A DNA stretch of 37,168 bases from a virus (lineage: Duplodnaviria; Caudoviricetes), in the IMG/VR virus record IMGVR_UViG_3300017988_000012, positions 1-37,168 of that record; one strand, given 5' to 3'. The notes under the pieces are model-generated. The model was not told the DNA's origin. It saw nothing but the letters and a program-made list of their open reading frames with translations, and made no database searches. Position 1 is the stretch's first letter; the number at the start of each line of letters is the position of its first letter. Of the stretch, positions 6,533 through 37,067 are shown piece by piece. Both the position numbers and the translations under genes were made by a program.

Positions 6533-7038
6533 TTTTGTCCATTTGCTTTCTCTTTTCTAGCTATTTGCCGAATTTCTTCTTTCTTTTGTTTCAATAATCT
6601 TTTCATCCATCCATTAGATGGCTTTTTTGGGATTGCATCACCATTGACAACAAAGACCTTCCCAACGATCTTATTTCTGGCAGGCTTGTCAGTCCCTTCA
6701 ACATGTGCCCAATAAGCATATGGCTCAAGATCTTCTTTCACCTTGATTTTGAGATAGAAATATTTGCCTGAATGTATTGGTTCTGATTCTTCGTCTAGAT
6801 TTTCAGGCGTACCGGGAATGAAATATGGATCATTAGGAACTTTTTCTTCGACGATGATCTCTGTTCCAACTGGCATGTAAAAACTTTCTACTGATAAAGA
6901 CGGAAGGCCTTCAGTACACCAATAAGGAGTTTTATATTCAAACTCGTCATCTTTCATTTCAATCTTTCCTGCCTTTTTTTCAGCTTTCTGAGTTCGTTTA
7001 GCATTGCGATGCCCTTTCTTTTTCCTCTCCTGATGCAT
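6529..7038 (-). CDS. hypothetical protein
   Basis: ATGA overlap with next gene; start uncertain (possibly internal MKDDEF). Confidence 0.6.
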   Translation of the reverse strand: MHQERKKKGHRNAKRTQKAEKKAGKIEMKDDEFEYKTPYWCTEGLPSLSVESFYMPVGTEIIVEEKVPNDPYFIPGTPENLDEESEPIHSGKYFYLKIKVKEDLEPYAYWAHVEGTDKPARNKIVGKVFVVNGDAIPKKPSNGWMKRLLKQKKEEIRQIARKEKANGQK

Positions 7039-7108
7039 GACTCGAACATGCGACCGATTGATTAACAGTCAATTGCTCTCCCAGCTGAGCTAATCAGGAT
7101 TGTTTTTT

Positions 7109-13003: not shown

Positions 13004-13519
13004 ATGGAAAAACCTGATTCTGACAAATACTCGTATAATCGCTTTGGCTCAAAAGGGAAACGTGTAGGACAGGCGGTTGTTGACATTCTTTCTAAGCCAC
13101 AGCCAATCCAGACTGTTGGCGATACTCTAGACGCCTTCGGGCCTGATTTTGCAAAGCAGATAGAGCAATGCATCGAGGACAATAAGTCCAAGTATAAAAA
13201 TCCATTTTATATCTTTGTTCTCACGAAGAAAGAATTTTGGGCGAACAACGTCGTCAGGAATTGGTTTATCGCGCGACAGACAGCACCTCATGCATTTGAT
13301 ATGATGGAACAGTATTCGAATTATACAAAAACTTTATATATTGTCGACAGCGCAAAAGGAAATATTAAATGTCTCTGGTCACTCCCAGGTTGGGATGATT
13401 GCCTCACTATCGCCAAAGCTCCACAGAAATTTGATCCAGAATTAGTAAAATGGGTCGAGGGATGCTTCACGAGGCAGCTGGATCGAGATGAATATCCTTT
13501 TGATTGGCAAGTAGCTTAG
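13004..13519 (+). CDS. hypothetical head-region protein
   Basis: 171-aa ORF between portal and scaffold. Confidence 0.8.
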   Translation: MEKPDSDKYSYNRFGSKGKRVGQAVVDILSKPQPIQTVGDTLDAFGPDFAKQIEQCIEDNKSKYKNPFYIFVLTKKEFWANNVVRNWFIARQTAPHAFDMMEQYSNYTKTLYIVDSAKGNIKCLWSLPGWDDCLTIAKAPQKFDPELVKWVEGCFTRQLDRDEYPFDWQVA

Positions 13520-13617
13520 AGAGAGAAGCCAAAGATGGAGGCAGGCAAAAAACGCATCGTCTGAGGAATAGTATCAAGAATACTCAGCATTAGAAGGTGT
13601 AACTCCTTCCTCTCTCA
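13519..13617 (+). ncRNA. tRNA-like element lacking a canonical anticodon arm
   Basis: Acceptor GAGAGAG/CTCTCTC + A; D arm GCC-AAAGATGGA-GGC; T arm GAAGG-TGTAACT-CCTTC. Confidence 0.6.
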
Positions 13618-13825
13618 GTTTTATTCAACTCTTTCCATTCTTGAAACAGTTCATCCACACGAAATGCTCATTTCTTGTGCATATTCCAATAACATAAACA
13701 ATATTTGACAAAATCCTTTGCTTCGTCTATCAAGAAAATTGTTGAGTTAAAATATTCGTTGACACCGTAAGTGTCTAACTCAGCTTTTTCAAATAGGCGT
13801 AACGGGGCTATCGCAGGCCCAAGGA

Positions 13826-14551
13826 ATGTTGATGACTGATGAAGTAGAACAGAGCGTGAATCAAGAGGAAGTCGCTCCCCCCACGAATTCAGAAGAGCAG
13901 CAGGACTCCCCGCAGGAGACGGCTCAGGAAGTTCAAGATCCTCCGATCAAGGATCAAGAATATAACTGGCGTGAGGCCCGCAGGAAGATAGACGAGTTAG
14001 AATATCGAACGAGACAGCAGGATGATTTGATTTCAAAGCTCCAGAATCAAAAAACTGTCGCCCCTCAAGAGGACGATCTAGCAAAACTGGCAGAAGATGA
14101 CATTATCACTGTCAAACAGGCCAAGAATATTGGCCAGAAAATGGCCAGAGAAGTTGCAGAGCAAGTCATTCGAGAGCGGGAAGCAGCAACTGTTGATGAA
14201 CGAGTCAAGAATAGATTCCCTGATTTCTACGATATTGTAACCAAAGAAAATTTTGGTGTTTTACAACAACAAGATCCAGAACTTGCGCAATCGATCGTTG
14301 GCCTAGCTCACGATCCATATGCTCAAGCTGTTGCGGCCTATAAATTGCTTAAGAAACAAGGATTTGGAGAAATGGCAAAGAATCAGCCTCAGAAGAATAA
14401 GGCGCTAGAAAACTCTCGCAAGCCTGTTTCAGTCCAGTCGGTGACGAAAAGTTCAGCAATCGGCGAAGTGCACAGATTTGAGAATGGATTGACTCCAGAG
14501 CTCAAGAAAGAGCTGTGGAAGGAAATGCAGCAGGCGATGAAAGGAACGTAA
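13826..14551 (+). CDS. putative scaffolding protein
   Basis: Acidic N-terminus, coiled coil (NWREARRKIDELE), directly upstream of the capsid gene. Confidence 0.75.
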   Translation: MLMTDEVEQSVNQEEVAPPTNSEEQQDSPQETAQEVQDPPIKDQEYNWREARRKIDELEYRTRQQDDLISKLQNQKTVAPQEDDLAKLAEDDIITVKQAKNIGQKMAREVAEQVIREREAATVDERVKNRFPDFYDIVTKENFGVLQQQDPELAQSIVGLAHDPYAQAVAAYKLLKKQGFGEMAKNQPQKNKALENSRKPVSVQSVTKSSAIGEVHRFENGLTPELKKELWKEMQQAMKGT

Positions 14552-14582
14552 GCTGGATCTTTTTAATAGGTAAATTAAAAAG

Positions 14583-16745
14583 ATGAGTATAACAACTACG
14601 TCGACCCTGCCGGCCCCTGTGCAGCAGTCGTTTTCGTTTAAGTTGCTCTCGGTTCCTGTGCCATACATGATCCACAAGATACCTGCAGAGCTAAAAGCAA
14701 TGCCACGCAATGGTGGTACGACCCTTGACTAAACTAGGGGTCATTAAATCTTCTCTGATAGACTTGAAAACCTTACCACGTTATGGTGAAGGCAACAAGG
14801 GGCAAGATATGGAAACAAACTGGGATTTATTGGAAAAAGATACAGATCTCTTGAATTATGCAATAATAAAAATGAGATCTGAGGGAATAGAACCAGAAAA
14901 ACTCAAAGATATTGTTGAATGGGTAAATTCCAAACCATATCCATATCCATATCAGCCTGAACGTAGCAAGCGAGAAGACTCCAGAAATGGAGATGCGGTG
15001 CTCTGAACATTGCAGAAATGCAGTGAGGAAAGTGCAATAGGCTTTCCCGCCTAGAAATAGGTAGTAACAAAATTGTAGAATGCGACGATACAATCCGCTC
15101 GCAACTGCGCCAGTGCCTCTTGGCAATAGTGGAGTGACACCTGCACCACAAAATCTGACCGCACTTAACATCGATGCCCAGATGGACTTCTACGGCACCT
15201 ATGTACTCTTGAATGAGCAGGTCACTTTACAAAATCAAGATCCTAGCTATATTATGGAGGCAGCTTGATAGATTTTGCTTTTCACGAATGAGACATTTAT
15301 GCTATAATAACTGGAGCACTAAACCAAAAGAAAACGCACAAGTTCTTTTAAATTTTTGCCAAAACTTTTCTCCTGTTAAACATAGACAAGCATCAGTTCC
15401 TAAAGAAGAACTTGACATTCGTGAAAATTTTTATCAAGAATTGATTCATTTAAATAAATATGGGATCTATAAATCTTCTCTGATTGACTTGGAAGCCCCA
15501 CGGGGTGACAGGGCCGAAGACGAAAGTCACGGTGAACGACTAAGTGAGAAGACCTCGAAAGAGGATGCGATAGTCTGAACAGCAGACGAAAGCTGCTGAG
15601 AGCGATCCGAAGAGGTTGCTCCGCCAACTATCTGGAATTTCCGGATAGTTGGTCACAAAAGTAACAGAATGGTATTAAACGAAGCTGCACAACGCTTAGG
15701 CGTGTCACTTCGTCAAACAGAAGATCAGCTGATGCGAGATATGCTTGCGTCTACTGCAACTTTTGTGAATTGTATTGGTGGATCTGATGGTGATAACCCA
15801 ACAGAAATCACCCGCAGTGACGTCGACTTTGTAGTCAGAACGCTGAGAGGAAACAATGCCTACAGCTATCTGTCAGGAGTCGAAGGAGAAAATCGTTTTG
15901 GAACAGCTCCAGTACGTGATGCGTTGACAAAATATGCGCATCTAAAATCTTGGGTAATTGACTTGGAACTCCTCGCGGCATAGGCTAAGGACAACAAGGG
16001 GCAAGCTATGGAATGGATAAATGTTTTTGATGCATTGCCAAAAATACATGAGGTAGTTTGGATATACTGGCGTGATCGAGAAGTCTTACTTGGTTGTAGG
16101 ATAAATGACGATTCAGAGCCACACGAAAACTGGTACTCATTTGATGATGACAAATGCAGATGGACATACTGGTGGCAAAAGGTTTCATCAGAAAATTTAG
16201 ATAAACCTTTTCCTCCATTAGGCAATACTTCCTCGCAGCCTGAACGACTAAATCCTGAGACTCCGAAAGGAGATGCGATAGTCTGAACTCTATGGCGACA
16301 TAGAGAGGGAGATCCGAAGAGGTTTCCCCGCCATCAAAAAAATGGTCTAAAGTAACAGAATGATTTTGGGTTAGCGCATACTAACTTAATTGGGCAACTC
16401 GACAATGTTAATGGGTTCATCCAGAAATGGAATTATCCCAATCAACAGTCCACGCTTGATGCAGAATGGGGAACTGTTGCCAACGTTAGATTCTTACTAT
16501 CTAGCATTGGCTCTGTAACGCCAAACGCATCATTGCTTGGAAATGATGTCTATAATTGTTTTGTCTGCGGCCGCGAATCTTTTGCAGCCATCGAACAAGA
16601 CGGCTATAGCGCACAATTTATTTATCGACCACCGATCTATGATGGGCCTCTGGCTCTTAATGCATCTGTGGGCTGGAAAATGGCAGAGGTGCCGCGTCTC
16701 CTCAATGACACATGGCTTCTAAATCTTAGAATGACATTGGCATAA
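14583..16745 (+). CDS. major capsid protein (N4 gp56-like), spliced: join(14583..14725,15076..15244,15672..15924,16363..16745), 315 aa
   Basis: 143+169+253+383=948 nt open frame: MSITTTSTLPAPVQQSF...PRNGGTTL|RMRRYNPL...QNQDP|VLNEAAQRLG...APVRDAY|FGLAHT...EWGTVANVRF...ASVGWK...LRMTLA. Confidence 0.9.
14726..15075 (+). mobile_element. group I intron 1 (350 nt)
   Basis: P1 GACCCUU/AGGGGUC with U14725.G14737; P3 TCTTCTC/GAGAAGA; P8 CTCC/GGAG; P9 GAAA loop; terminal G15075. Confidence 0.88.
14809..15006 (+). CDS. intron-1-encoded small ORF (65 aa), unknown function
   Basis: ATG after AAGGGGCAAGAT; METNWDLLEKDTDLLNYAIIKMRSEG...GDAVL*. Confidence 0.5.
   Translation: METNWDLLEKDTDLLNYAIIKMRSEGIEPEKLKDIVEWVNSKPYPYPYQPERSKREDSRNGDAVL
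15245..15671 (+). mobile_element. group I intron 2 (427 nt)
   Basis: Exon ends in U15244 (P1 imperfect); P3 TCTTCTC/GAGAAGA; P7 GACTA/TAGTC; P8 CCTC-GAAA-GAGG; terminal G15671. Confidence 0.88.
15285..15578 (+). pseudogene. probable LAGLIDADG homing endonuclease remnant in intron 2
   Basis: KENAQVLLNFC...IRENFYQELIHLNKYG resembles the C-terminal helices of phage LAGLIDADG proteins; no catalytic motif left; 5' boundary approximate. Confidence 0.45.
15925..16362 (+). mobile_element. group I intron 3 (438 nt)
   Basis: P1 GAUGCGU/GCGCAUC with U15924.G15936; P10 CAAAAU/AUUUUG; P3 TCTTGGG/CCTGAGA; P7 GACTA/TAGTC; terminal G16362. Confidence 0.92.
16008..16286 (+). CDS. intron-3-encoded DUF551-like protein (92 aa)
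   Basis: MEWINVFDALP...VWIY...TYW...PFPP follows the DUF551-type pattern. Confidence 0.6.
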   Translation: MEWINVFDALPKIHEVVWIYWRDREVLLGCRINDDSEPHENWYSFDDDKCRWTYWWQKVSSENLDKPFPPLGNTSSQPERLNPETPKGDAIV

Positions 16746-16757
16746 GGAGAAAAAAAT

Positions 16758-17732
16758 ATGTCTACACCTATGCATGCGTTAGTAAATGGTACTTTTTCAA
16801 CAGGGTCTACTTTGACACCTGTTACTATCAACCTTCCTTCAGGGTATGATTACTTCCAGTTCTGGAATATCACAGACTGGGGTTCTACGGACGCTGACAC
16901 AAGGATTATGGGAGCAGAAGGCTGGTCGTATATGCCTGCTGGATACGCTCTCACACATCCTAAGACAAGTGGAGCAGCCACATTAGGTCCTGCAGGAATT
17001 ATCACCAGCGGAGGATTTACCTTCATCAGTGATAGTGGCGCTCAAACTCCTGGTCCAATCATCACGAACATCACAGCAATCACAAATGCTGCTGGTGCAG
17101 TAGCATCGACGATTACGCCAGCTGCTGTTGGGTCAGTTGTTCGAATCACCAACAGTGTTGGAATGTATCAAATTGGTGGCTGGGATTTCACGATCACGGC
17201 TGTCAATCCTGCTACAAGCATGACGCTTGGATACTTGGATGCCTCTGGCTTTTCAGCTCCAGGCACCACAGCATCATTCAGTGTCATTCCGTACAACCCA
17301 CGGTACTATCCTGTTCGTCGAAGAATTACGAGCATCACACAAGCTGCTTCAGCTGTGATCACGATGTCCGTAACTCATGGATACACTGTTGGTCAAACTG
17401 TTCGGATTAGCGTCCCTGCAGGATGGGGGATGACTCAGATGAATGGCCTTCTAGCCAGCATCACAGCCATCAACACATCGACAAACTCGATCACTGTCAA
17501 TATTAATTCGACAGGATTCACAGCATTTGCATTCCCGACGAGTGCATCTGCTGCTCTTGGGACAGGTGCTCCAGAAGTAACCCCAGTTGGGGAAACTGCT
17601 GCAGCTCCATATCAAAATCTTCTAGACGATGCGACATACAATACATCGTTCACTGGGATTTCGATAGATCCTTCGATGTTGATCGCGAACAAATCTTATG
17701 GTTGGATTGCCCGAAACGGCGTATTCATCTAA
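16758..17732 (+). CDS. virion structural protein, beta-rich (capsid decoration-like, FCCH-like repeats)
   Basis: RBS TAAGGAG; ITSITQAASAVIT...HGYTVGQTVRI...GMTQMNG. Confidence 0.75.
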   Translation: MSTPMHALVNGTFSTGSTLTPVTINLPSGYDYFQFWNITDWGSTDADTRIMGAEGWSYMPAGYALTHPKTSGAATLGPAGIITSGGFTFISDSGAQTPGPIITNITAITNAAGAVASTITPAAVGSVVRITNSVGMYQIGGWDFTITAVNPATSMTLGYLDASGFSAPGTTASFSVIPYNPRYYPVRRRITSITQAASAVITMSVTHGYTVGQTVRISVPAGWGMTQMNGLLASITAINTSTNSITVNINSTGFTAFAFPTSASAALGTGAPEVTPVGETAAAPYQNLLDDATYNTSFTGISIDPSMLIANKSYGWIARNGVFI

Positions 17733-17746
17733 GTTTTGTGATTCTT

Positions 17747-17776
17747 GGGCCTCTCGTTCTGGGAGGCCCTGCTTTT
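17747..17776 (+). terminator. intrinsic terminator after the head operon
   Basis: GGGCCTCTC/GGGAGGCCC stem then TGCTTTT. Confidence 0.6.
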
Positions 17777-17902
17777 CCAGAGACAAAACCCTAAACCGTT
17801 GCCCTAAGAGACGTTTGCAACTATCAGTGTCAAATAAAATTTTACTTTAACAAATAATAAATATTTGAAATATTGCGCATGAAACCTAACTTAGGAGGGT
17901 TC

Positions 17903-18412
17903 ATGTCGCGACCAAAGAAAGTAGAAGAAAATAAAGAAGAACAAAAAGTTGAGAGTCAATCAACAGAATCAAAAAAGGAAGAGTTGATAATTGTTGCTCC
18001 TCCTGACACGAAACAAGTAGCGAAGGCAAAACTAAATAAGTTCATCGAAGAAGAGACAAAACTTGTCAAGGGAAGATTCAGAAACTACGAGACACCTGGA
18101 GGAGTTGTAAAGATTATCGTTAGAAAATACCCAGGAATCCCACCATTTGATAAAATAATGATTGATAACGAAATTTACGAGATTCCTCTATATGTGGCGC
18201 GACATCTTAACGGCGTGGATATCACCGCTGGCAACGGCAACACAAAAATTAATACCTGTGCTTGGCCAACTCATGGATTCAAATACGATGGTAAGGGAGA
18301 TTTGCCTAAGAGTGCAACAGATGGTCAGGGAATTGCAGTTCCTATCATTGGCGTTGCTAAATGGAATCGAAGATATGGTTTTGAATCTTTGGAATTTGAT
18401 ACAGGAATGTAA
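17903..18412 (+). CDS. hypothetical virion-associated protein
   Basis: ATG 17903 after AGGAGG. Confidence 0.8.
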   Translation: MSRPKKVEENKEEQKVESQSTESKKEELIIVAPPDTKQVAKAKLNKFIEEETKLVKGRFRNYETPGGVVKIIVRKYPGIPPFDKIMIDNEIYEIPLYVARHLNGVDITAGNGNTKINTCAWPTHGFKYDGKGDLPKSATDGQGIAVPIIGVAKWNRRYGFESLEFDTGM

Positions 18413-18418
18413 TTCTCT

Positions 18419-18835
18419 ATGACAGCCCCTAATTATTATGTACCTAGCCAACAAGTCATTCTCGAAATAGTCAAAGGGCTGTCTACGACCATTGTTACAG
18501 AAAATCCTCATGGTTTTCTCACAGGACAAACCGTGAGGATTGAGATTCCTACGATAACCTACAACAACACAGTGCAGAAGATCGCTGAGAATGTAGGGAT
18601 GCAGCAATTAAATGGATTTTTAGGAGAAATTACAGTCATTGATGATTACACATTTTCAGTTGCTGTAGATTCACGCCAATATGACGATTACATAGGCTTT
18701 CTCTCGCCTGTCTCTGCCACATCCATCGGCCAAGCCATTCCTGTCAGTGAACCAGCCGATACTCTTGATGGTGCTACTAAAAATAATAATAATATTCTTC
18801 CCGAGACGATCGGGACAATCCCTATTAACTCTTAG
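18419..18835 (+). CDS. FCCH-like beta-domain structural protein
   Basis: HGFLTGQTVRIEIP...GMQQLNG, paralogous to a domain of 16758..17732. Confidence 0.75.
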   Translation: MTAPNYYVPSQQVILEIVKGLSTTIVTENPHGFLTGQTVRIEIPTITYNNTVQKIAENVGMQQLNGFLGEITVIDDYTFSVAVDSRQYDDYIGFLSPVSATSIGQAIPVSEPADTLDGATKNNNNILPETIGTIPINS

Positions 18836-18841
18836 GCATGT

Positions 18842-19921
18842 ATGACTATCCCCAGTACCTTAGCAGATATTAGAAATAAAGTGAGGAGGATCACAGGACG
18901 TCCCTCTACCACTCAAATCACTGATCAGCAAATCGATGATTACATCAATACTTTCTATCTGAATGACATGCCAGAGCATCTTCGACTCGAATCCCTTCGA
19001 TACAACTATCAGTTCGTGACAAATGCAAATCAACCAGTTTATGATTTTCCCAGAGATTACTATCTAGACAATATGCCACCAGTATTCATTGGTGGATATC
19101 AATCCTACATGACTCAAAGCAGAGAAAACTTCTTCAGGATCAATCCACAACTGAATTTACTGCAGCAAATGGCAACTGGAAATGGAACTGCTGGGCCTTA
19201 TGTATTTACTCTAACTAATACGCCCATTACCCCAGGATTCAAAACAAATCCTCCTGGCGCCTACTCTGTTTCTGTCATCAATACTCCCTCCGATATTCCT
19301 CCAGCCCAAATCAACTGGAATGTCCTGATTTCAGGGGTGAATGGATCAAATCAATCAATTTGTCTAGTCGATGATGGACAAGGAAACTTATTCGACGTCA
19401 ATGATTTCTCCTCTGACCCTAATCCTGATCCAAGCAATGTTCCTCCATGGCGAGGAGCACTTGGGACGATCAATTATCTGACTGGAGCTGTCACGGCCAC
19501 TTTCTCGCAGCCAATTGCTGTCGGTGCCAATATAAATGCACAATACATCCCATATGTTGCCAGTCGCCCTCAGAGCTGTGTTTTTTATCAGGACCAGTTC
19601 TACCTCTACCCTATTCCCGATCAGGCCTACACGGTCAGTTTTGAGGCCTTTAAATACCCAACAGCGTTAATTAACGATTCTAGTGTTCCACAATTAAGAG
19701 AATGGTGGCAAGTTTTAGCCTATGGAGCTGCAGATAAAATCTTTGCAGATAATGGGGATATGGAAAATTTACAAAAGTTTCGACCATTATTAGAAGAACA
19801 ACTTAAATTAATACAAAGAAGAACTATTGTTCAATATACTTCAGAAAGATCTTCAACAATTTATACTGAACAAACTAGTTTTCCTCAGTACCCATTTGGA
19901 AACCTTTTCTCAGGATTTTAA
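18842..19921 (+). CDS. putative head-tail adaptor / tail tubular protein A
   Basis: TLADIRNKVRRIT...IDDYIN...LYPIPDQAY...VLAYGAA; gene position. Confidence 0.7.
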   Translation: MTIPSTLADIRNKVRRITGRPSTTQITDQQIDDYINTFYLNDMPEHLRLESLRYNYQFVTNANQPVYDFPRDYYLDNMPPVFIGGYQSYMTQSRENFFRINPQLNLLQQMATGNGTAGPYVFTLTNTPITPGFKTNPPGAYSVSVINTPSDIPPAQINWNVLISGVNGSNQSICLVDDGQGNLFDVNDFSSDPNPDPSNVPPWRGALGTINYLTGAVTATFSQPIAVGANINAQYIPYVASRPQSCVFYQDQFYLYPIPDQAYTVSFEAFKYPTALINDSSVPQLREWWQVLAYGAADKIFADNGDMENLQKFRPLLEEQLKLIQRRTIVQYTSERSSTIYTEQTSFPQYPFGNLFSGF

Positions 19922-19933
19922 AATAGGAAAAAT

Positions 19934-20530
19934 ATGTCATATAATCCTTCGATTCCACAGCCAGGGGATATTCCCTCGCAGTCACAGTCTCAATTCCTCA
20001 CCAACTTCACTCAGCTGAATACGCAATTTGGCACTGAGCATTTTGCTTTTAATGCAGCGTCCTCAAATGGGAAACATAAATATGTCACGCTGATTCAGAA
20101 TCCTACGATTGCGGCTCCTCTAGGCACAGAACTCCTTCTACGGCAAGTATCGGCTGCTAGTACCAATGATGTTGAATTTGTCGATGTCTCTGGAAATAGC
20201 TGGTATATCCCTCTCCGGCGTCTCTTCACTCCCATTGCCATTCCTGCTGGAACAAACAATGTCAATCTTTTAGATTTCTCGACAGCAGCATTAGGCGCGC
20301 AAATTTCGGGGACAATTCAGACTTTTGATCTTTCTACTCCTACCAGGCAGAATTTCACTCCCTTCGCATATTTTGGTGGAGTGCTGTATATCCCAGTAGG
20401 ATCAGGACAGTTAGCATCAGGCAATACCTTTGCAAAGCTTCAGTCCTCTGGCTCTGTCTTGCAATTGGTCGTCAATGGCCTAGGCGCTCCTACTACCATA
20501 ACCTTAATTATCACTGAGTCACGAACATGA
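19934..20530 (+). CDS. putative tail structural protein
   Basis: 198 aa, coupled to the next gene. Confidence 0.7.
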   Translation: MSYNPSIPQPGDIPSQSQSQFLTNFTQLNTQFGTEHFAFNAASSNGKHKYVTLIQNPTIAAPLGTELLLRQVSAASTNDVEFVDVSGNSWYIPLRRLFTPIAIPAGTNNVNLLDFSTAALGAQISGTIQTFDLSTPTRQNFTPFAYFGGVLYIPVGSGQLASGNTFAKLQSSGSVLQLVVNGLGAPTTITLIITESRT

Positions 20531-22875
20531 GCTATCAACCTCACTATATCGCTTCCTTTGAAGATGATAGCGGTTTGTTCACATATATGGAGCCTTTTCT
20601 CATCCCAGAAAAAGCATTTCCAATATTGGAAGATGCATATTGCTGGAGAGGAAGAGTGTTGAAGAGACAAGGATTTGAGCTTCTAGGACGATTACGTAGG
20701 ATATTGACGACAGCATCGATAGGAAACATTTCAGCGGGTGGAGCTTCTCCCCCAAATGTTGTGGTAAATATTTTTACAGCTTTGGGAATCAATGTCGACG
20801 AACCCCTTGCTCAACTTCAGCCTGGATCCGCGACTAATCCTCTCGTCATCACAATTGGCGCTCCAATAAGCCAAGTGCTAACTGATACTACTGGTACTGG
20901 AACATTGTCGATTGCCCCAGCAGGCGTGATCACAGCAGCTACGATCAATTACAATACAGGAGCGTTAACACTCACATTTTCAGCAGCCTCCGCAGCTTCA
21001 GCAGCCACGATTTCTGGCGCTTATTATCCTGGACTGCCAGTTATGGGATTGAGGACGAGAGAGCGGCCAGCAGTAAATAATGAAACAATCGTGGCTTTTG
21101 ATACTATCTACGCATATCAATATAATTCTACAACCCTTCAATTCGAAGAATTACCTTCTACTGCTCCAACTACTTGGAATGGAACTGATTCTGAATTTTT
21201 TTGGTCTACGAACTATTATTATGACTCTTCAGGGAATGAAATTTTCTGGGCAACCAATGACAACATGACAGGCGCGCCGCAGGACCCAATTCGATACTAC
21301 AATGGAACGACCTGGACAACCTTTGCTCCTCTTGTCACTGCTGGCGCTCCTACTAGCACTTTGTATAACGCGCTGATCATTCTTTCCTATAAAGATCGAT
21401 TGATCATGTTGAATACCTGGGAAGGCACAACCGCTGGAACGATCACAGCAGCTTCAAACTTCCCTCAGCGAGTCAGATGGAGTCAGAATGGCAGCCCACT
21501 TGATCCTACAGCATTCGAGAGCGATGTGGTAGGCAAAGGCGGATATCTAGACGCTCCCACAAACGAAATAATCGTATCGGCAGAATTTGTGAAAGACGTC
21601 CTGCTGGTGAAGTTCGAACGATCCTCATGGAAGCTTGTCTATACTGGAAATGAGACGCTTCCATTTGTATTCCAGAAGATCAACACAGAACTTGGAGCAG
21701 AGAGTACTTTTTCGCTTGTCCCATTTGACAGAGGAGTATTTGCTGTCGGAAATTTTGGCATCACCACTGATGACAGTGTGAATGTGGAGAGGATCGATCT
21801 GCAAATCCCTAACACGATCTTCGGGTTCAACAATGACAAACAGGGCGTGGATCGAGTATATGGGATAAGAGACTATTATAATGAATTAGTTTATTGGACT
21901 TATCCTGATTCACATGATGATCCATTATATCCAAACACAACATTAGTATTTAATTACAGAAACAATACTTACGCAACTTACACTGATAGTTTCACTTGTT
22001 TTGGATATTTCCAGAGAGCGCAAGACTTGAGCTGGGCGCAACTTCCATACAACAGCTGGACAGATTGGAATACTCCATGGAATTCTGGGGTTGACCAAAG
22101 CCTTTTCCCGAATGTTATCGCTGGCAATCAGCAGGGATTCGTGGAAATTGTAGCACAGAAATCCTTAAATGACGCTTCTCTCTTCATTTCGTCGATCAAC
22201 TTTTCTCTAACTCCAGTTCAATTCACCGTGCCGAATCATAACTTAGAGAGCGGGGATATAGTAAAAGTAACGAACATTATTGGAGGAGGAGGATTAAATC
22301 CTTCTTCCTTAAACAATAACACTTATAAAGTAAATGTTGTTAATGAAAACACAATTCAATTGTTTTATTTTAATTCTGTAGATCAAACATTCGATGACTT
22401 ATTGGCTGCAGGCCTCGTGAATTCCACGAGTCTGTACTTCGGTGCTGGCCTCTTGGCTAAGTTCAATAATTTTAACATTGCTACAAAAATTTTCGCTCCT
22501 TTCTATGAAAATGGAACGCAATGCAGAGTGGGATATATAGATTATTTGATCGACAAAACGACAGCTGGACAATTAACAGGAGAGTTCTACATCAACGAAG
22601 ACAACTCAGATTCGATGAGCGATGAAAATGTGAATGTGTGCCTTCTTGGCAACAATACTATCCTCACCTATCCCGAATCCTTGACTCTCATTCCACAGCA
22701 GGCAAATCAGAAGAAGATTTGGCATAGGCAATTTATCCAAGCTATCGCCCAAAACTTTCAGGTCGTCCTAACGATGAACGATGTTCAAAATGCCACGCAG
22801 GCAATCGCTGATGAAGAGTTTGTCCTTCATGCTATGACTTTTTACCTTTCTCCGAATGCTAGGATGACGCAATGA
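20527..22875 (+). CDS. putative tail nozzle / stabilization protein (P22 gp10 / tubular B-like)
   Basis: 782 aa beta-rich; YKDRLIML, RVRWSQNGSP, ERID...I, ELVYWTYP. Confidence 0.7.
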   Translation: MSYQPHYIASFEDDSGLFTYMEPFLIPEKAFPILEDAYCWRGRVLKRQGFELLGRLRRILTTASIGNISAGGASPPNVVVNIFTALGINVDEPLAQLQPGSATNPLVITIGAPISQVLTDTTGTGTLSIAPAGVITAATINYNTGALTLTFSAASAASAATISGAYYPGLPVMGLRTRERPAVNNETIVAFDTIYAYQYNSTTLQFEELPSTAPTTWNGTDSEFFWSTNYYYDSSGNEIFWATNDNMTGAPQDPIRYYNGTTWTTFAPLVTAGAPTSTLYNALIILSYKDRLIMLNTWEGTTAGTITAASNFPQRVRWSQNGSPLDPTAFESDVVGKGGYLDAPTNEIIVSAEFVKDVLLVKFERSSWKLVYTGNETLPFVFQKINTELGAESTFSLVPFDRGVFAVGNFGITTDDSVNVERIDLQIPNTIFGFNNDKQGVDRVYGIRDYYNELVYWTYPDSHDDPLYPNTTLVFNYRNNTYATYTDSFTCFGYFQRAQDLSWAQLPYNSWTDWNTPWNSGVDQSLFPNVIAGNQQGFVEIVAQKSLNDASLFISSINFSLTPVQFTVPNHNLESGDIVKVTNIIGGGGLNPSSLNNNTYKVNVVNENTIQLFYFNSVDQTFDDLLAAGLVNSTSLYFGAGLLAKFNNFNIATKIFAPFYENGTQCRVGYIDYLIDKTTAGQLTGEFYINEDNSDSMSDENVNVCLLGNNTILTYPESLTLIPQQANQKKIWHRQFIQAIAQNFQVVLTMNDVQNATQAIADEEFVLHAMTFYLSPNARMTQ

Positions 22876-23354
22876 CCTTTAACCCTTCTAATACCAAAAC
22901 TTCTTATCTCTCTACTGCTGAAGTTTTCCCAGAAGATCCAAGCCAATTTCTCATCAAGCTCACAAATCTCTACATCGATATTGCCAACGCTGTCAATATT
23001 CGAGAAATAGCTCGATACGAGAACATAGAGATCTTAACCGGCCAGCAGTATTTCACGCAAGGGAACAATCAGACAAAGAGATATGTGTTCAGAACGGTAT
23101 TTAGCTTCGGCGCGATTGTGGCAGGGGCAACGTTGACGGTGGCGCATGGCATCACAGGCCTTGTTCTTCCTGTGCATATTTATGGCGTTGCTACAACTTC
23201 TGTTCCAGACTGGCGCCCGATTCCCAGCGCTCCTACCTCAGGAAATGACTACATCTTCGTCAGCGTTGATCCAACGAACTACAATATCAAGAATGGGGCT
23301 GGCTCACCGAATATCACTGGCGGAACGCTTGTCATAGAATATTTAAAAAATTAG
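22872..23354 (+). CDS. putative tail protein
   Basis: ATGA coupling; VAHGI...HIYG...VIEYLKN. Confidence 0.7.
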   Translation: MTFNPSNTKTSYLSTAEVFPEDPSQFLIKLTNLYIDIANAVNIREIARYENIEILTGQQYFTQGNNQTKRYVFRTVFSFGAIVAGATLTVAHGITGLVLPVHIYGVATTSVPDWRPIPSAPTSGNDYIFVSVDPTNYNIKNGAGSPNITGGTLVIEYLKN

Positions 23355-23398
23355 TTGTCTTCTGTTAAGATACAGAAAAGTAACAATAGGAAAATAAA

Positions 23399-24259
23399 AT
23401 GGCACAAGATACCTCCTCAAAAAAACTCAAAGCAGGACATAAATACGGCCGATTACAGAGGTATGAGACTCTGTCCAAAGAACAGAAAAAGGTCCTGAAG
23501 CAATTTGGCAAGCCTGTCAAAGCTGAAAAATTCAAAACGCCAGAAACCATGAAGCGAGGATTGGAATTCTTGCAACGTGGCATCACTCAAGGTCCTCCTA
23601 TTTCTCCTACAGAACAAGCAGGACAAGGATTTCTCCAGAATCTTCTCTCGCGCACTCCTGAGCAGCAATATCAGACATTCGCACAGCCTTTCATGAGACA
23701 ATTTCAAGAGCAGACAGTGCCACAGTTAGCTGAGAGATTTAGTGGATTAGGGGCGCAAAGATCATCAGCATTTGGGCAAGCTTTAGGTGGAGCAGGCGCT
23801 GGATTGCAAGAAAACCTTGCAGCTCTAAAAGGGAATTTGATCAATCAAATGCTCGGACAGCAACTCCAAGGGGCAAATGTTGGATTAGGATACTCACAGC
23901 TTCCGGGACAGAGATTTGGGCAACAATTGCAAGCTACGCAACTTGGCATTCCTTCAAGTCTCCTGCCTCAAGAGATGCAGCAGAGATTGAATCAGAACGC
24001 GCAGCAACAGCAATATCAACAGAGAATGGGAATCCTTGGCACGCAGCCATGGGGAACAGCAATGATCGCGCCTCAGGGAAGAGAAGGATTTTGGAGCCAA
24101 TTTGCCCCATCCTTAGCAGCAGCTGGAGGAAGTGCTCTTGGATCATCATTATTTTCTGGATTAGGTTCGATGGGCGGAAATTGGCTGAGTGGATTATTTG
24201 GAGGAGGATCTAAAGGTATGATTGAAGCTCCACAGGTTTCGCCAGGATTCTTTGGTTAA
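23399..24259 (+). CDS. putative DNA ejection / internal virion protein 1
   Basis: Gln/Gly-rich with Gly-zipper C-terminus; position. Confidence 0.6.
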   Translation: MAQDTSSKKLKAGHKYGRLQRYETLSKEQKKVLKQFGKPVKAEKFKTPETMKRGLEFLQRGITQGPPISPTEQAGQGFLQNLLSRTPEQQYQTFAQPFMRQFQEQTVPQLAERFSGLGAQRSSAFGQALGGAGAGLQENLAALKGNLINQMLGQQLQGANVGLGYSQLPGQRFGQQLQATQLGIPSSLLPQEMQQRLNQNAQQQQYQQRMGILGTQPWGTAMIAPQGREGFWSQFAPSLAAAGGSALGSSLFSGLGSMGGNWLSGLFGGGSKGMIEAPQVSPGFFG

Positions 24260-24275
24260 AAAATATAGGAATAAT

Positions 24276-25688
24276 ATGTCAATTCAATTCATACCTCCTG
24301 CATACACTCAGCGTCCGCAAGGCATGAGCAGCAAAGTGGGCCAGGCGCTAGGCCAAACTCTTCAAGGAGCGACAAATCTCTATCTTCAAAACAAGATTCA
24401 GGGATATTTTGATGAGCAGAAAACTGCTCAACAAATGGCATCACGATCCAAAGGAGCAAAAGCTTTAGCCGCCTTACCACAATTCAAAAATACTCCAGGC
24501 CTCGAAGAGTTGCTCACGTCAGTTCCTGAACAGCATTGGGCGCCTTTGTTGCAACAAGTTGAAGAATCAAATATTGGGTCCATGAATCTTGGCGGAGACA
24601 TTTCGTCGTTGCTACGAGGACAACCAGCTACTCAATTGCCATCGCAACCAGTACAAGGATCGCAGCAAATGGCTCAGCAGCCTCCATTGCAGCCACTACC
24701 TACTTCTGCCACTACTGCTGCCAATCTTTCGGCTGCCCAGAGAGCTTCTCCAGCAATGGCGCCATATTCCCCTGAATTTTTAGCGCAAATGACACAAGTG
24801 CCACCAGCAGTGGCACAAATGCCTGGCGCTACTTCTCCAGAACAAGAATTAACTCAAGGACAAAAACCTATTCTCCTCGGCGATCTCCCAGAAGAACACT
24901 ATCAGGCATTGAGGAACAGACTTGGATCAAATACAGCAAAGAAAGAAGCGGATAAAATTCGAAAAAGTCAAATAATGACGACTGCCGCTCAGACAAAGAC
25001 AGAAACAAATAGGAAAAGAGAAGAAAGAGAAAGTGAATCACATGCAGTTCTAATGGAAAAGGAGCCAAGAGAATATATTAAAAAACTAAATGACGAATAT
25101 AATTCTTCTTTGAAAAAACGACCTATCTATAAAACTCTAGAATCCAAAGCTCCTGAATTACAGAAAGGATCAGTATTACGAAAGTATTTGATGGATAAAT
25201 ACGATTTACCTGCTGGTTTTATGCTTGACAAGACTGGAGAAGTTTTAGAAAAGCTTTCTCAAAATCTTCTTAGAGGAATATCCGCAGATTATAAAGGAAG
25301 GATACTTCAATCAGAAGTTGAAAATTATTTAAAAGGCGTTCCTTCTTTAGCAAATACTCCTGAAGGTATTGTCCAATTATCTAAAATATCCTTAGAAATG
25401 GATAAACTGTCTGAAATGAAGTGGAAATTAGCGAATGAAATAAAAAAAGACTACAGGGCTAGAGGAGAACGATTACCTGAAGATCTTGAAACTCAGGTTC
25501 TCGAGAAAAGTGAAAAATTTGCTGATGATGTTTATAAAAACATTGAAAATATTATTGGTTCTAAACAACTTCAGGAAGTAGAAGATGAGCCTGTTATTGT
25601 GACAAATCTGAAGACAGGACGTACGGGTCCAATGCCAAGGAAATTTGCAGAAGAAGCAGCTAAGACTGGAGGATACCAAATCAAATGA
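24276..25688 (+). CDS. putative DNA ejection / internal virion protein 2
   Basis: ATG 24276 after AGGA; helical with Q/P-rich linker. Confidence 0.6.
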   Translation: MSIQFIPPAYTQRPQGMSSKVGQALGQTLQGATNLYLQNKIQGYFDEQKTAQQMASRSKGAKALAALPQFKNTPGLEELLTSVPEQHWAPLLQQVEESNIGSMNLGGDISSLLRGQPATQLPSQPVQGSQQMAQQPPLQPLPTSATTAANLSAAQRASPAMAPYSPEFLAQMTQVPPAVAQMPGATSPEQELTQGQKPILLGDLPEEHYQALRNRLGSNTAKKEADKIRKSQIMTTAAQTKTETNRKREERESESHAVLMEKEPREYIKKLNDEYNSSLKKRPIYKTLESKAPELQKGSVLRKYLMDKYDLPAGFMLDKTGEVLEKLSQNLLRGISADYKGRILQSEVENYLKGVPSLANTPEGIVQLSKISLEMDKLSEMKWKLANEIKKDYRARGERLPEDLETQVLEKSEKFADDVYKNIENIIGSKQLQEVEDEPVIVTNLKTGRTGPMPRKFAEEAAKTGGYQIK

Positions 25689-27124
25689 CGGTAGATTATG
25701 ACAAATACTTCTTACCAGAGAAACCAGTTTCCAGTGCTCCTCAACAACAAGATTTTGATAAATATTTCACTCCAGAACGAACTGTAAAAGAATCAGTGAG
25801 GCGCGATATTGGTAGAACTGCAAAATCTGTCGCCGCCCCAATTCTTGGAGGATATGGAGATATACAAGATCTACTTCTCTCTTTAACATCAAAAGTGTAT
25901 GGTGTAGATCCAGAAAAAGTCAAGGAACGCCTACAGAAAATGGCTGAAGAAGATCAAGAAATTCCTTCTTTGATGCCTTCTACGTCTGAAATCAAGAAAT
26001 CTGTCGAAGAAATTGCTCCATCTCTCAAACCAGAAACTGCAGGTGAGAAAACATATGAGGAAACATTAGAACTTGGATCGACATTGGCTAATCCTTTGAT
26101 GGGTGGTGCTAAAATTGGACGCGCTGCAGTTGGTGCGTTAACAGGAATGTTGGTAAAAAAAGGAGCTGAAAACATCGGCGTCGGTGAGACAGGGCAAGAA
26201 TTAGCCAAGAATATCGCTTCAATCATTCCGCTGGTCGTTTCAGGAAAGATAACACCTACAACAACTCAAGCGAAAGAGCTCTACGAAGCAGGAAAAAGAG
26301 CTGGCCTCACAGACAAACAACTTGCTCCTCTGATGACAGAGAACTGGAAGTTAGCTTCCCTTGGTAAATTCGCCAAGCAATCTCCTGAGATTACTAAAAG
26401 AATGTCGGAGGTCGAATCTACTCTGGGAGAATTTTATAAGACTATCAAGAAATCGGCTGCTCAAGAAGCACCATATTCTTCCACACAAATTGAAAATCTT
26501 GGGTCAAAGATGCAAGATATTTCAGATTCATGGAAACGAACCCTGAAAGCCGCTCCAGATAAGGAAGCTGCAATAAAATTCGTTGATGAAGCTATAGCAA
26601 ACTTAAAAACTAGAGGGGCGACTCCAGAATCACTAATTAATTTTTATCAAGACATAAATGCTGCTGTAAATTGGAGAGCTATTAAAGGAGGAAAGAAAGA
26701 ACTTTCTGAAATTAAAAATTTAATTTCTTCTACATTGAAAGAATCCTCTCCTAAATTAGCAAAAGATTTTGAATCCGCGAATAAGCTTTGGTCTAAGCTA
26801 GAAAAATTCAGGAAGGAAGTTGGATGGGGTGAAACGTTGGAAAAATATGCCAAATTTGGTGAGTTTGCTCCGTTACTTTTTAATCTAGCGACATTCAATA
26901 TTCCAGGTGCTGTGAAGGTAGGAGCAGGAATAGCAGGGGCAGAAGCAATCAGAAAAATAGCTACAGCGATGTTGACCAATCCATCATTTCAAAATATTTC
27001 CAGAAATACTCTTAGAGCTGCTAAAACAAATAGTCCAAAAATAGCTCAATTGGCATACAATCAATTAAAAGAAGTAACCAAGAAAGAGTTTCCAGAAGAA
27101 TATAAACAGATAAATTGGCCTTAG
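25685..27124 (+). CDS. putative DNA ejection / internal virion protein 3
   Basis: ATGA coupling; helical with Gly/Ala hydrophobic segments; duplicated D(Y/F)DKYF motif. Confidence 0.6.
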   Translation: MTVDYDKYFLPEKPVSSAPQQQDFDKYFTPERTVKESVRRDIGRTAKSVAAPILGGYGDIQDLLLSLTSKVYGVDPEKVKERLQKMAEEDQEIPSLMPSTSEIKKSVEEIAPSLKPETAGEKTYEETLELGSTLANPLMGGAKIGRAAVGALTGMLVKKGAENIGVGETGQELAKNIASIIPLVVSGKITPTTTQAKELYEAGKRAGLTDKQLAPLMTENWKLASLGKFAKQSPEITKRMSEVESTLGEFYKTIKKSAAQEAPYSSTQIENLGSKMQDISDSWKRTLKAAPDKEAAIKFVDEAIANLKTRGATPESLINFYQDINAAVNWRAIKGGKKELSEIKNLISSTLKESSPKLAKDFESANKLWSKLEKFRKEVGWGETLEKYAKFGEFAPLLFNLATFNIPGAVKVGAGIAGAEAIRKIATAMLTNPSFQNISRNTLRAAKTNSPKIAQLAYNQLKEVTKKEFPEEYKQINWP

Positions 27125-27130
27125 GAAGAA

Positions 27131-27265
27131 TTATTCTTCATCAGGAATCATGTCATTCCAAAACAGATAATGAAACACTGGTAGAACAATCATTCCAAGT
27201 AAAACAATTCCTATTACAGGAAAAACAAAGTTTGCTAAAACTACTTCCAGTAAAAAAGTAAACAT
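27131..27265 (-). CDS. tiny membrane protein (44 aa)
   Basis: TAATG coupling, RBS GGAAG; long hydrophobic run. Confidence 0.6.
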   Translation of the reverse strand: MFTFLLEVVLANFVFPVIGIVLLGMIVLPVFHYLFWNDMIPDEE

Positions 27266-27474
27266 TATTCTTCCTTCTTTAATTTAATTCTTTCTTCTAA
27301 AGCACAAAGCCTTCCGTGGAAATCCTTCATTTCATTGCTTGATAATTTCGTTTCGTCTCTCAAGTCTCTCAGATCATTTCTGATTTCTTGATGATTTGCC
27401 TTGGCTGAGTTTGAAATATTGATAATGAAAGAAATAATGCAGGTAAAAAAGATCGTAAACTGTAACCAATCCAT
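27265..27474 (-). CDS. TM + coiled-coil DFHGRLC paralog 3
   Basis: EMKDFHGRLCALEERIK. Confidence 0.8.
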   Translation of the reverse strand: MDWLQFTIFFTCIISFIINISNSAKANHQEIRNDLRDLRDETKLSSNEMKDFHGRLCALEERIKLKKEE

Positions 27475-27477
27475 TAA

Positions 27478-27621
27478 TTAATTCCTATGCATTGCCTTCT
27501 TAAATTCATCTCTATCTCGCTTCATTTCATGGCTCATTTTTTTATTGTACATGAATCCCTTCACAACAAAATATGAGCAAGCGATAACAACAAGAGCTAA
27601 TTGAATGTAATCTCTGTACAT
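27478..27621 (-). CDS. tiny membrane protein (47 aa)
   Basis: RBS AGGAGGAG; MYRDYIQLALVVIACSYFVVKG... Confidence 0.65.
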   Translation of the reverse strand: MYRDYIQLALVVIACSYFVVKGFMYNKKMSHEMKRDRDEFKKAMHRN

Positions 27622-27624
27622 GGG

Positions 27625-27867
27625 TTATTTCTCCTCCTTTAGCTTCTTTTTTTCTTCCAATGCACAAAGTCTGCCGTGGAAATCTTTGATCTCGTCCTTA
27701 ATAGCAATAATTATTGCTAACATTGAATTATGATCGTTCTGAATTTTCATATCTGCTGTCTGACGATCGCTTTGAATTTTTGCTTCAATAGCTTTCAGAT
27801 CACTTCTTCCTATTAAGAAAAAACCAGCCATTGCAAAAGTAAAGACGATAAGTTGTGTCCAGTCCAT
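27625..27867 (-). CDS. TM + coiled-coil DFHGRLC paralog 2
   Basis: EIKDFHGRLCALEEKKK. Confidence 0.8.
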   Translation of the reverse strand: MDWTQLIVFTFAMAGFFLIGRSDLKAIEAKIQSDRQTADMKIQNDHNSMLAIIIAIKDEIKDFHGRLCALEEKKKLKEEK

Positions 27868-27868
27868 G

Positions 27869-28087
27869 TTATTTCTCCTCCGCGAACTTTTTTCTTTCCT
27901 CTATGGCACATAACCTCCCGTGAAAATCTTTTATCTCAGCGTAAGTCTCTTGATGCATTGACGACAGTAGCTCTTCTACTCGTCTGTTGTCTGCTCGTCC
28001 TTCTGACCTAGACCAAAAGAACATGCCACATATAGTTACCATAATCACTACAAGCTCTAGAACTTGAACCTTGATTTCATCTTTCAT
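27869..28087 (-). CDS. TM + coiled-coil DFHGRLC paralog 1
   Basis: EIKDFHGRLCAIEERKK. Confidence 0.8.
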   Translation of the reverse strand: MKDEIKVQVLELVVIMVTICGMFFWSRSEGRADNRRVEELLSSMHQETYAEIKDFHGRLCAIEERKKFAEEK

Positions 28088-28090
28088 GTG

Positions 28091-28252
28091 TTATTTTAAC
28101 TCCATCTTTCTCACTCTTTCTTCAAGATCCTTGATTTTTCTTCCTCTATCAATATTTACGTCTATCCATTTAAGTATATGGTAAAACAAAAACGCAAAAA
28201 TTATCGGCCAGGTGATAGAAAAATATGTCATCAACAATGTAGATGTGTCCAT
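28091..28252 (-). CDS. tiny TM + coiled-coil protein (53 aa)
   Basis: MDTSTLLMTYFSITWPIIFAFLFYHILKW...IKDLEERVRKMELK. Confidence 0.65.
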   Translation of the reverse strand: MDTSTLLMTYFSITWPIIFAFLFYHILKWIDVNIDRGRKIKDLEERVRKMELK

Positions 28253-28259
28253 AATTAAC

Positions 28260-28343
28260 CTACTGCTTCATTCTGATGCTATACATTAGCAGGACGGTCC
28301 AAAAAAACACAAGCAAAATCTCAGACGCAATGATGAGCTCCAT
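28260..28343 (-). CDS. 27-aa hydrophobic peptide
   Basis: RBS GAGGT; MELIIASEILLVFFWTVLLMYSIRMKQ. Confidence 0.5.
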   Translation of the reverse strand: MELIIASEILLVFFWTVLLMYSIRMKQ

Positions 28344-28385
28344 GGACTTAACAACCTCTTTTCTCAAGATTTAACAAATGATGCT

Positions 28386-28571
28386 TCACACAATACTGTG
28401 AAAGGATTTTTCGATCTTCTGATTTAACATCCTGATCGACAGATCTGTCATCTTTCGGTATTCCTTCATTTCCCTTTCCTCTTCGTGACAAAATTCTCTG
28501 ATATAACAAAATCCTCCATAAATGCAGAAAATATTAGCAACGACCGTAATAAATGTTATCCATGAATCCAT
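28386..28571 (-). CDS. tiny TM + coiled-coil protein (61 aa)
   Basis: RBS AGGAG; N-terminal TM. Confidence 0.65.
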   Translation of the reverse strand: MDSWITFITVVANIFCIYGGFCYIREFCHEEEREMKEYRKMTDLSIRMLNQKIEKSFHSIV

Positions 28572-28622
28572 ACATTTTGTCTCCTATTTCTAGAGTCCTC
28601 AACATACATGAATAAAATATTT

Positions 28623-28651
28623 TTGACACATCTCCCGTTTAATGGTATTGT
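28623..28651 (+). promoter_or_regulatory. promoter of the tail-fibre operon
   Basis: TTGACA-17-TATTGT with extended -10 TG; TATTGTAAAGRAAAT also precedes the portal gene. Confidence 0.6.
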
Positions 28652-28703
28652 AAAGGAAATTTATCAATACCCCTCATGTGAGGCTCAAATAATAGGAGAA
28701 GGT

Positions 28704-29402
28704 ATGGCACGGTATCTCAATCCCCAAGGCGAATCGCTTTACGGGACACCACAACCAATAGTAAATCAATTTCCCACCCCCATTCCAGCTAGGAGAGATC
28801 CTACGACATCAGATACTGGATATATCATTGGGCAGGTATGGGTCAACAAAGTTGCTGGCACAGTTTGGGCGTTGGCATCAAATAGTGGTGGAGTGGCTTC
28901 CTGGCTAAGTCTTGGAGGTAGTTTAACTCCCACTGTTGCAACTATCACAGCCACCACCTTCATCACTGCGACAGCTGGAACGTCAACGTCTCTCAATGGC
29001 AATACTTGGGCAGGGATAGGGACGAACGCTAATATCAACCTCGTCATGACTCCCAAAGGGACAGGTAATATCGTGGTATCGTCTGGCAATGTTTCTCTGA
29101 CAAATGGGAACGTTGTTGTGAATACTGCAGGGACTGGAGTAGAGATCAAGGAAGGCGCGAATGGAAGGATGGGGACATCCACACTTGTCGCTGGAACTAA
29201 ATCTATTTCTATCGCCTCTGTAGATGCTTCTACACGAGTATTTCTTTCCCGCTCTGGCCTCAACGCATCCCCAGCTCTAGGATTCTTGATTGCTAATACC
29301 TCAGTTCCAGGAACGCTCACTGTTTCATCATATGATGCAACAGGAGTAGCGGTAGCAACTGATGTATCACAATTCAACTATCTCTGTGTCGAAGCTCTCT
29401 AA
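28704..29402 (+). CDS. tail fibre/appendage protein
   Basis: ATG 28704 after AGGAG; RDPTTSDTGYIIGQVWVN motif shared with 33111..34106. Confidence 0.75.
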   Translation: MARYLNPQGESLYGTPQPIVNQFPTPIPARRDPTTSDTGYIIGQVWVNKVAGTVWALASNSGGVASWLSLGGSLTPTVATITATTFITATAGTSTSLNGNTWAGIGTNANINLVMTPKGTGNIVVSSGNVSLTNGNVVVNTAGTGVEIKEGANGRMGTSTLVAGTKSISIASVDASTRVFLSRSGLNASPALGFLIANTSVPGTLTVSSYDATGVAVATDVSQFNYLCVEAL

Positions 29403-29417
29403 CTTTAAGGGGAAAAA

Positions 29418-29750
29418 ATGAGCTCTCTAAGTGTAAGAGTTTTTTACGAAGCTCTGAGATCGATTAATTCTGCAACCTTCACTGGATCATATCAGCCACT
29501 GGGATCTCCTCTGGCTCACAATCCTTTTCTGATAAAGCTTGTGAATACTTCCACGGTCCCTGTGACGATTTCGATCGACGGCGTGACAGATCATGACATT
29601 TGTCCCGCAGGATGTTTCTTTCTCTATGATGAAACTGCAAATGCCTCTAGAGAAGCAGGGTTGACGGTTGCCACAGGTACGCAGGTTTGGGTGAAAGGAT
29701 CAGCAGGCGCAGGATCTGTCTATCTCGTCGTCCAATACGCAGGAGGCTAA
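29418..29750 (+). CDS. small beta-sandwich virion protein
   Basis: 110 aa, RBS AAGGGG. Confidence 0.75.
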   Translation: MSSLSVRVFYEALRSINSATFTGSYQPLGSPLAHNPFLIKLVNTSTVPVTISIDGVTDHDICPAGCFFLYDETANASREAGLTVATGTQVWVKGSAGAGSVYLVVQYAGG

Positions 29751-29753
29751 GAC

Positions 29754-30281: not shown

Positions 30282-30289
30282 GAGGAAAT

Positions 30290-33100: not shown

Positions 33101-33110
33101 ATAGGTAGTT

Positions 33111-34106: not shown

Positions 34107-34386
34107 GCATGGGCATGGAGATCGATTGCTGTGTTGCCTGTGGCGCAAACATTGTCGTGGGGAATAGAGCAGCCTCGTAATTCCTCATTGTCTCCTGCAT
34201 CAAGAAAATAGCATCCTTCAGCTTCTCTATCTCTTCTCTAGCTTCCTGATATTTCTTTTCCAATTCATCATGCCTGCTAAACATGCCCCTACGAATGTTT
34301 CCGAGGCTCTTTTCTACTTCTCTTATCTCGCCTTTTAATATTTCGGACTCTGATCTTTCGAAAAGCTCCAGCTGAAGACATGACAT
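34063..34386 (-). CDS. coiled-coil protein
   Basis: RBS GAGGAG; QLELF...IRRGMFSRHDEL. Confidence 0.7.
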   Translation of the reverse strand: MSCLQLELFERSESEILKGEIREVEKSLGNIRRGMFSRHDELEKKYQEAREEIEKLKDAIFLMQETMRNYEAALFPTTMFAPQATQQSISMPMPKTINSLGNSLQLH

Positions 34387-34693: not shown

Positions 34694-34700
34694 GAGATTT

Positions 34701-37054: not shown

Positions 37055-37067
37055 AATTTTCCTCTGA

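Follow-up and report, generated by a model that had tools for sequence, protein, structure and literature searches.

Three group I introns, probably self-excising, divide the major capsid gene of an uncultured wetland phage

In this study, we analysed the entire 37,168-nt record of a virus (the window), which is complete and carries genes for a portal protein, the large and small terminase, an adaptor, RecT, RusA and a replication initiator. The sequencing runs that contain the window sequence are wetland metagenomes. The host look-up led to genome contigs placed in two bins of unrelated taxa, which are likely mis-binned, and a small-protein search returned no organism. The major capsid gene lies on the plus strand in four exons, exon 1 (14583–14725, 143 nt), exon 2 (15076–15244, 169 nt), exon 3 (15672–15924, 253 nt) and exon 4 (16363–16745, 383 nt including the stop codon), separated on the same strand by intron 1 (14726–15075, 350 nt), intron 2 (15245–15671, 427 nt) and intron 3 (15925–16362, 438 nt). 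Scans of positions 13500–17900 for promoters (11 found, 7.4 expected) and for terminators (5 found, 3.7 expected) remained at chance level.

The window's list of open reading frames holds no intact capsid ORF, as a preceding sequence-only reading of this DNA had remarked, and removal of the three inserts that it delimited gives one frame of 948 nt encoding 315 aa, with every coordinate correct. Each insert is preceded by T (U in RNA) and has G as its last letter, and the exon lengths confirm the proposed intron phases of 2, 0 and 1. Profile-based mapping that was blind to the earlier coordinates chose the same three junctions, after coding positions 143, 312 and 565 (hereafter sites c143, c312 and c565). 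Exon 3 matches the major head family phrog_1357, and a search with exon 4 found 943 homologues, 120 of which were listed. Among the matches listed, 64 of 120 were 313–317 aa in length; these intact homologues shared 70–89.5% identity with the joined protein, 50 of the 64 aligned to it without a gap, and none (0/64) had a gap within 8 residues of any junction, which bears out the collinearity that the sequence-only reading had put forward for checking. Two intact homologues, P0031 and P0008, scored 151 and 146 bits with TIGR04387 (cut-off 60), the scores being those of homologues 89.5% identical to the joined protein and not of the joined protein itself. Judged by this kinship, the 315-aa product is a major capsid protein of the N4-gp56 family (TIGR04387), the best annotated phage relatives of which are only 23–27% identical to the capsid protein described here.

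RNA data bear directly on two of the junctions. In metatranscriptome X3, one contig runs from 14725 to 15076, skipping 350 nt, and another from 15924 to 16363, skipping 438 nt, both without a mismatch and at depths of 2.3 and 3.5, while a DNA contig from X1, possibly the source of the window, is unbroken over 14330–17400. The RNA check thus gave exact joints for junctions 1 and 3 and a weak hint only for junction 2, where an X3 contig begins at 15672, preceded by two unaligned letters. A second RNA run, X4, held no joint at any of the junctions; a small share of run X5 gave one exon contig, which was left out of the evidence, and missing RNA cover over the introns was not counted as evidence either. 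Across 17300–37168, where cover was sparse (5 and 3 of 30 bins), no RNA joint was found. The X3 joints might alternatively stem from DNA of an intron-less strain contained in that RNA library. Retention of any intron would cut the protein at 49, 111 or 207 aa, and this, together with the two junctions joined in RNA, supports the earlier claim that three excisions are necessary for the capsid protein. The missing intact ORF could also indicate a broken pseudogene or a misassembly, to which we give practically no credence, given that the gene is the single copy in a complete 37-kb record, its exons are 89% conserved and the same inserts occur at the same sites elsewhere; homologue collinearity, the independent mapping and the joined RNA refute it.

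All three introns display the hallmarks of group I introns, namely a terminal omega-G (15075, 15671 and 16362), a P3–P7 pseudoknot with the G-binding G-C pair, P4–P6, P8 and P9, and in each of them P1 comprises a U.G wobble plus 5–6 further pairs. In intron 1, P1 is GACCCU/GGGGUC with the wobble at G14737, P3 is formed by 14749–14755 and 14972–14978, and P7 is a variant, G(U)AGCA/UGCUC, with the G-site at G14963. Intron 2 has a compact core, a long-range P1 (AGAUCCU/GGGAUCU) with the wobble at G15462, and P3 at 15474–15480/15546–15552. The corresponding elements of intron 3 are P1 GAUGCGU/GCGCAUC with the wobble at G15936, P3 at 15948–15954/16254–16260 and the G-site at G16246. The sequence-only reading had recognised the wobble in introns 1 and 3, where it is indeed present, but G15462 of intron 2 shows that it is not limited to those two. 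The P3 pairs that it wrote (TCTTCTC/GAGAAGA and TCTTGGG/CCTGAGA) are present. The perfect 6-bp P10 that it gave to intron 3 exists as a complement (CAAAAT 15928–15933/ATTTTG) but is 2 nt out of register; P10 pairing with the 3′ exon in register comprises 3, 5 and 2 bp in introns 1, 2 and 3, respectively.

The suggested search with Rfam RF00028 failed to detect the introns, with no match at E≤1 on the window or at E≤10 on 14600–16500; introns of subgroups ID and IE, and many of those in phages, reportedly escape this model (PMC11878797). We built a family model from 37 of 43 compact introns from relatives (6 were excluded, and none came from the window). A hand-set structure was 95.0% paired in these 37 introns against 71.8% in shuffles, a margin that the shuffled and slid controls flatter because the aligned introns are related to one another and one of them served as the template for the structure. 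P3 was 98.8% and P7 100% paired, two-sided changes occurred in 34 of 42 pairs, and the covarying core helices in the relatives comprise P1, P3, P4, P6, P7, P8 and P9. In 113 of 122 parsed introns, the pair and the bulge next to the G-binding site change in concert, as is the rule for group I introns. The family model matches intron 2 in one piece at 201 bits and each of introns 1 and 3 as two halves (45 and 79 bits, and 37 and 108 bits, respectively), and it reveals no further intron in the window, the next best match having 15 bits. The covarying core, the model matches, the U.G pair in P1 and the omega-G together support the assignment of the three inserts to group I. The core is devoid of P2, P5abc and P7.1. 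Introns of subgroup IA2, such as those of T4 and Twort, have P7.1/P7.2 between P7 and P3′; with only 2–4 nt at this position, IA2 is ruled out. Similar cores also separate the halves of two other genes, one for the ribonucleotide reductase of a Roseobacter phage and one for a P22-type coat protein: an unannotated intron of the same family appears to split nrd of Roseobacter phage CRP-118 (L360:1486-1885) and another a P22-type coat gene in MW202674 (L361:1488-1704).

Taking these results together, we favour, at a probability of roughly 0.88, the reading that the capsid gene carries three group I introns that likely excise themselves, that they homed there and subsequently lost their endonuclease, and that they are mainly tolerated passengers and not a gate. 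Introns 1 and 3 are removed at the exact junctions in community RNA, and all three would likely leave by the guanosine-started two-step reaction, giving an ordinary 315-aa capsid protein.

The introns contain ORFs that the sequence-only reading overlooked. A 65-aa ORF (14809–15006, plus strand) starts in the P6 loop of intron 1, enters the core and stops just after P7; homology searches returned no relatives or family for it. The P1 loop of intron 2 holds the C-terminal remnant of a LAGLIDADG homing endonuclease (15327–15479, plus strand), 49% identical over 51 aa to a 348-aa ORF of a same-site intron in L025, in a reading frame that closes at 15578. By this resemblance the P1-loop ORF is a decayed endonuclease, and apart from this 51-aa remnant no intact endonuclease gene is present in the three introns. 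The P6 loop of intron 3 carries a 92-aa ORF (16008–16286, plus strand) made up of an almost complete small phage gene, with weak resemblance to DUF551, joined in frame to core sequence. Of its 28 homologues (52–71% identity), a single one has the tail derived from the core, which is absent from the other 27, and a DNA-pattern search found the gene free-standing, outside intron and capsid gene, in three loci, whereas a peptide scan with the ORF found no other locus. Both P6-loop ORFs open with an ATG directly downstream of the P6 5′ strand and close shortly beyond P7. The P6-loop inserts of introns 1 and 3 measure 148 and 232 nt, and in all three window introns an ORF terminates at the same UGA after P7.

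Each intron would have reached its conserved site by endonuclease-driven homing, which we infer because introns found at c312 in other loci contain complete LAGLIDADG genes. The endonuclease would afterwards have been lost, with a fragment kept in the P1 loop of intron 2, while the P6 loop, which is the endonuclease slot in relatives, would now carry a small ORF in introns 1 and 3, that of intron 3 probably being a captured phage accessory gene. Trans-homing of ORF-less introns has been noted (PMC3984707). For the P6-loop ORFs of introns 1 and 3, translation may begin from a purine-rich segment of the P4/P6 strand; as the folded ribozyme would hide this segment, translation and splicing would compete. 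The introns would persist mainly as passengers, tolerated because their splicing is adequate.

The P6 loop could be parsed in 113 of 146 introns of the family (33 were unparsed), with no insert in 48, a mid-size insert in 34 (33 distinct) and a long one in 31. An ATG lies within the first 12 nt in 28 of the 33 distinct mid-size inserts, and 25 of the 33 are open to within 3 codons of the core in one common frame (0.09–0.51 in shuffles); these 25 ORFs fall into 23 unrelated groups, with one clear DUF551 member. The long inserts all have an antisense ORF of 145–196 codons, 23 of them with a LAGLIDADG-like motif. On the sense strand, 16 of the 31 are open in the frame of the mid-size inserts, with 0–1 stop in 160–190 codons (e.g. 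L023, L034, L084 and L121), one is open in another frame and 14 are not open. The shared frame, the early ATG, the open sense strands of long inserts and the common UGA in the window introns are what would be seen if translation through the P6 insert into the core were selected, whichever protein results, with ribosomes protecting an unstructured insert against premature termination or decay, or holding back the folding of the core until synthesis of the 3′ end. We regard such selection as a tentative proposal at somewhat less than even odds, given that 14 long inserts have stops in every sense frame, that many of the 16 open ones are kin, that early translation into the T4 td core harms splicing (PMC3073962), and that in-frame capture by short homology could produce a frame bias without selection. 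The frame bias may reflect either short-homology capture or selection for translation.

The same inventory bears on whether the introns, although real, need a host or phage protein (a chaperone or maturase, possibly the loop ORF) to splice. The 48 parsed introns without any insert speak against such dependence, as does the distribution of 25 loop ORFs over 23 unrelated groups, which implies that there is no common maturase. A core lacking P2, P5abc and P7.1, the sizeable loop inserts of introns 1 and 3 and the published dependence of phage intron splicing on translation (PMC3073962) would fit a helper, which we nevertheless consider rather unlikely. Self-excision thus remains our preferred reading.

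In related capsid genes, intron sites are numerous. Over all loci, 36 sites were found in the 945-nt gene, 35 of them for full introns, and long inserts occupy 24 sites in 82 loci not chosen for introns; inserts are present at c143 in 6, at c312 in 21 and at c565 in 3 of 82 related loci, which include near-duplicates. One locus, L044, is a mis-mapped partial gene. Conservation is slightly higher in the stretches that hold the insertion sites (0.88 vs 0.86, p 0.035), and the scatter of the sites fits repeated invasion. Many introns at c290 (e.g. L085, L137 and L093) share a conserved 40–50-nt P1-loop element that is partly complementary to the downstream exon, and in L099 / L302 the contig stops exactly at the c314 splice site, like an assembly branch between intron alleles. 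The multi-intron arrangement is less rare than the sequence-only reading had implied. That reading had also proposed that the different phases make splicing a timing or dosage gate on capsid output, since any exon skip would cause a frameshift. The premise is true in the window gene, but three introns have a 2 in 9 chance of all-different phases. Among relatives, a same-phase pair, which allows an in-frame skip, is present in 20 of 33 distinct site combinations. Of 81 pairs, 31 share a phase; about 45% would be expected, so that same-phase pairs are not significantly avoided. In the 82 loci whose selection did not depend on introns, the same-phase counts are 10 of 14 combinations and 17 of 34 pairs. 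Furthermore, 37 of 77 related capsid genes have no insert at all. We accordingly reject the gate, the likelihood of which we consider very small.

The window has no core-less mini-introns; its relatives do. At c264, we found 67 distinct inserts of 28–57 nt, 51 in 60 viral loci and 16 in 33 metagenome loci (examples are L084, L097, L104 and L115, with about 90 other loci), and each of the 51 from the viral loci either disrupts the reading frame or contains a stop. The mini-introns retain P1, omega-G and P10, and the third P10 pair tracks the wobble base of the exon in 50 of 51, against 28.8 under permutation. The tail of the mini-intron pairs with the exon just 5′ of the full intron that comes next, where 7.6 of 8 pairs form against 3.7 at other sites (50 of 51 scored), in a stretch 9–10 nt before the splice site of that intron (c290, c312, c314 or c350). 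A full intron or core lies downstream of the mini-intron wherever the contig continues, one contig ending at the site, and only 27 of 72 genes without a mini-intron have an intron at a downstream site. The mini-introns thus likely borrow the core of a neighbouring full intron. Ribosomal bypassing was rejected for them, there being no matching landing codon and P10 being covariant. In L117 and L254, the tail type matches, by eye, the second downstream intron (c312, c314) across a c278 intron. Our literature search found no paper on core-less mini-introns that borrow a neighbour's core.

A wider and equally tentative proposal, again short of even odds, is that the P6 loop of this compact intron family, which Rfam does not detect, is a translated gene slot, in which whole small phage genes, from the start codon to the last codons, are captured behind a ribosome-binding site that forms part of the ribozyme and translation into the core in one fixed frame is selected, with mini-introns of relatives sharing the core. 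If this is true, the introns would deliver accessory genes to the most abundant of the late transcripts, translation would be coupled to splicing, and relatives would run two splices on one core by means of mini-introns.

Capsid-gene introns of group I type have been described in the phages LittleE and Tuc2009 (PMC3706429; PMC2504315). Like those of the window, they interrupt a major capsid gene and have U|..G| ends, and theirs are spliced in late RNA; LittleE also has an antisense LAGLIDADG-like gene, as do many relatives here. Unlike the window gene, each has a single intron and belongs to a different capsid family, and the accessible text of these reports mentions no captured non-endonuclease gene. 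Three group I introns occur in one gene, orf142, of the Staphylococcus phage Twort (PMC10136302; PMC3073962), where the introns are of subgroup IA2, one exon is only 23 nt and skipping has been observed, whereas the window has internal exons of 169 and 253 nt, no skipping seen and a core without P7.1. In Delta and Zeta crAss-like phages, the MCP gene is in up to five pieces with group I introns between them (PMC7886860). These are gut phages of 145–192 kb with introns recognised by endonuclease domains (PMC7886860), in contrast to a 37-kb phage with three introns that lack an intact endonuclease. The closest precedent for the loop ORFs is T4 td, in which the I-TevI ORF in the P6 loop reads into the core and its ribosome-binding site is hidden (PMC3073962). 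The cargo there is a homing endonuclease and here small unrelated phage genes, and the strand hiding the ribosome-binding site would here be P4/P6, unlike that described for T4 td. Our literature search found no paper on such non-endonuclease loop cargo or on translation of cargo; earlier reports of capsid introns in the same clade may exist in subscription papers or supplements outside the search. The multi-intron capsid gene is therefore of a known kind, set apart by its loop cargo and by its being an insertion hotspot.

The capsid gene of this uncultured phage is a well-supported case of a gene with several introns, backed by RNA evidence. The introns are missed by Rfam and by gene callers, so that capsid genes of a common clade are often mis-annotated as fragments. 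An essential gene of 945 nt with 36 sites, intact, decayed and replaced endonucleases and core-less mini-introns offers a test system for the intron life cycle of homing, decay and loss, and for whether introns benefit phages, and the 200-nt introns are small ribozymes that would be easy subjects in vitro.

Elsewhere in the window, a tRNA gene with a GUU anticodon lies at 7027–7099 on the minus strand, and 27265–28571 (minus strand) contains several short, similar membrane-type ORFs with a C-terminal motif in common, one of which has 52 unnamed homologues. The large terminase gene (34868–36638, minus strand) contains an intein split by a stop near 35091, with the intein C-half and the last 51 terminase residues in another frame, and DNA contigs show no difference at the stop. 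The intein is also interrupted in L367 and L376, and L382 has an unbroken short intein; the interrupted form is possibly a naturally split intein.
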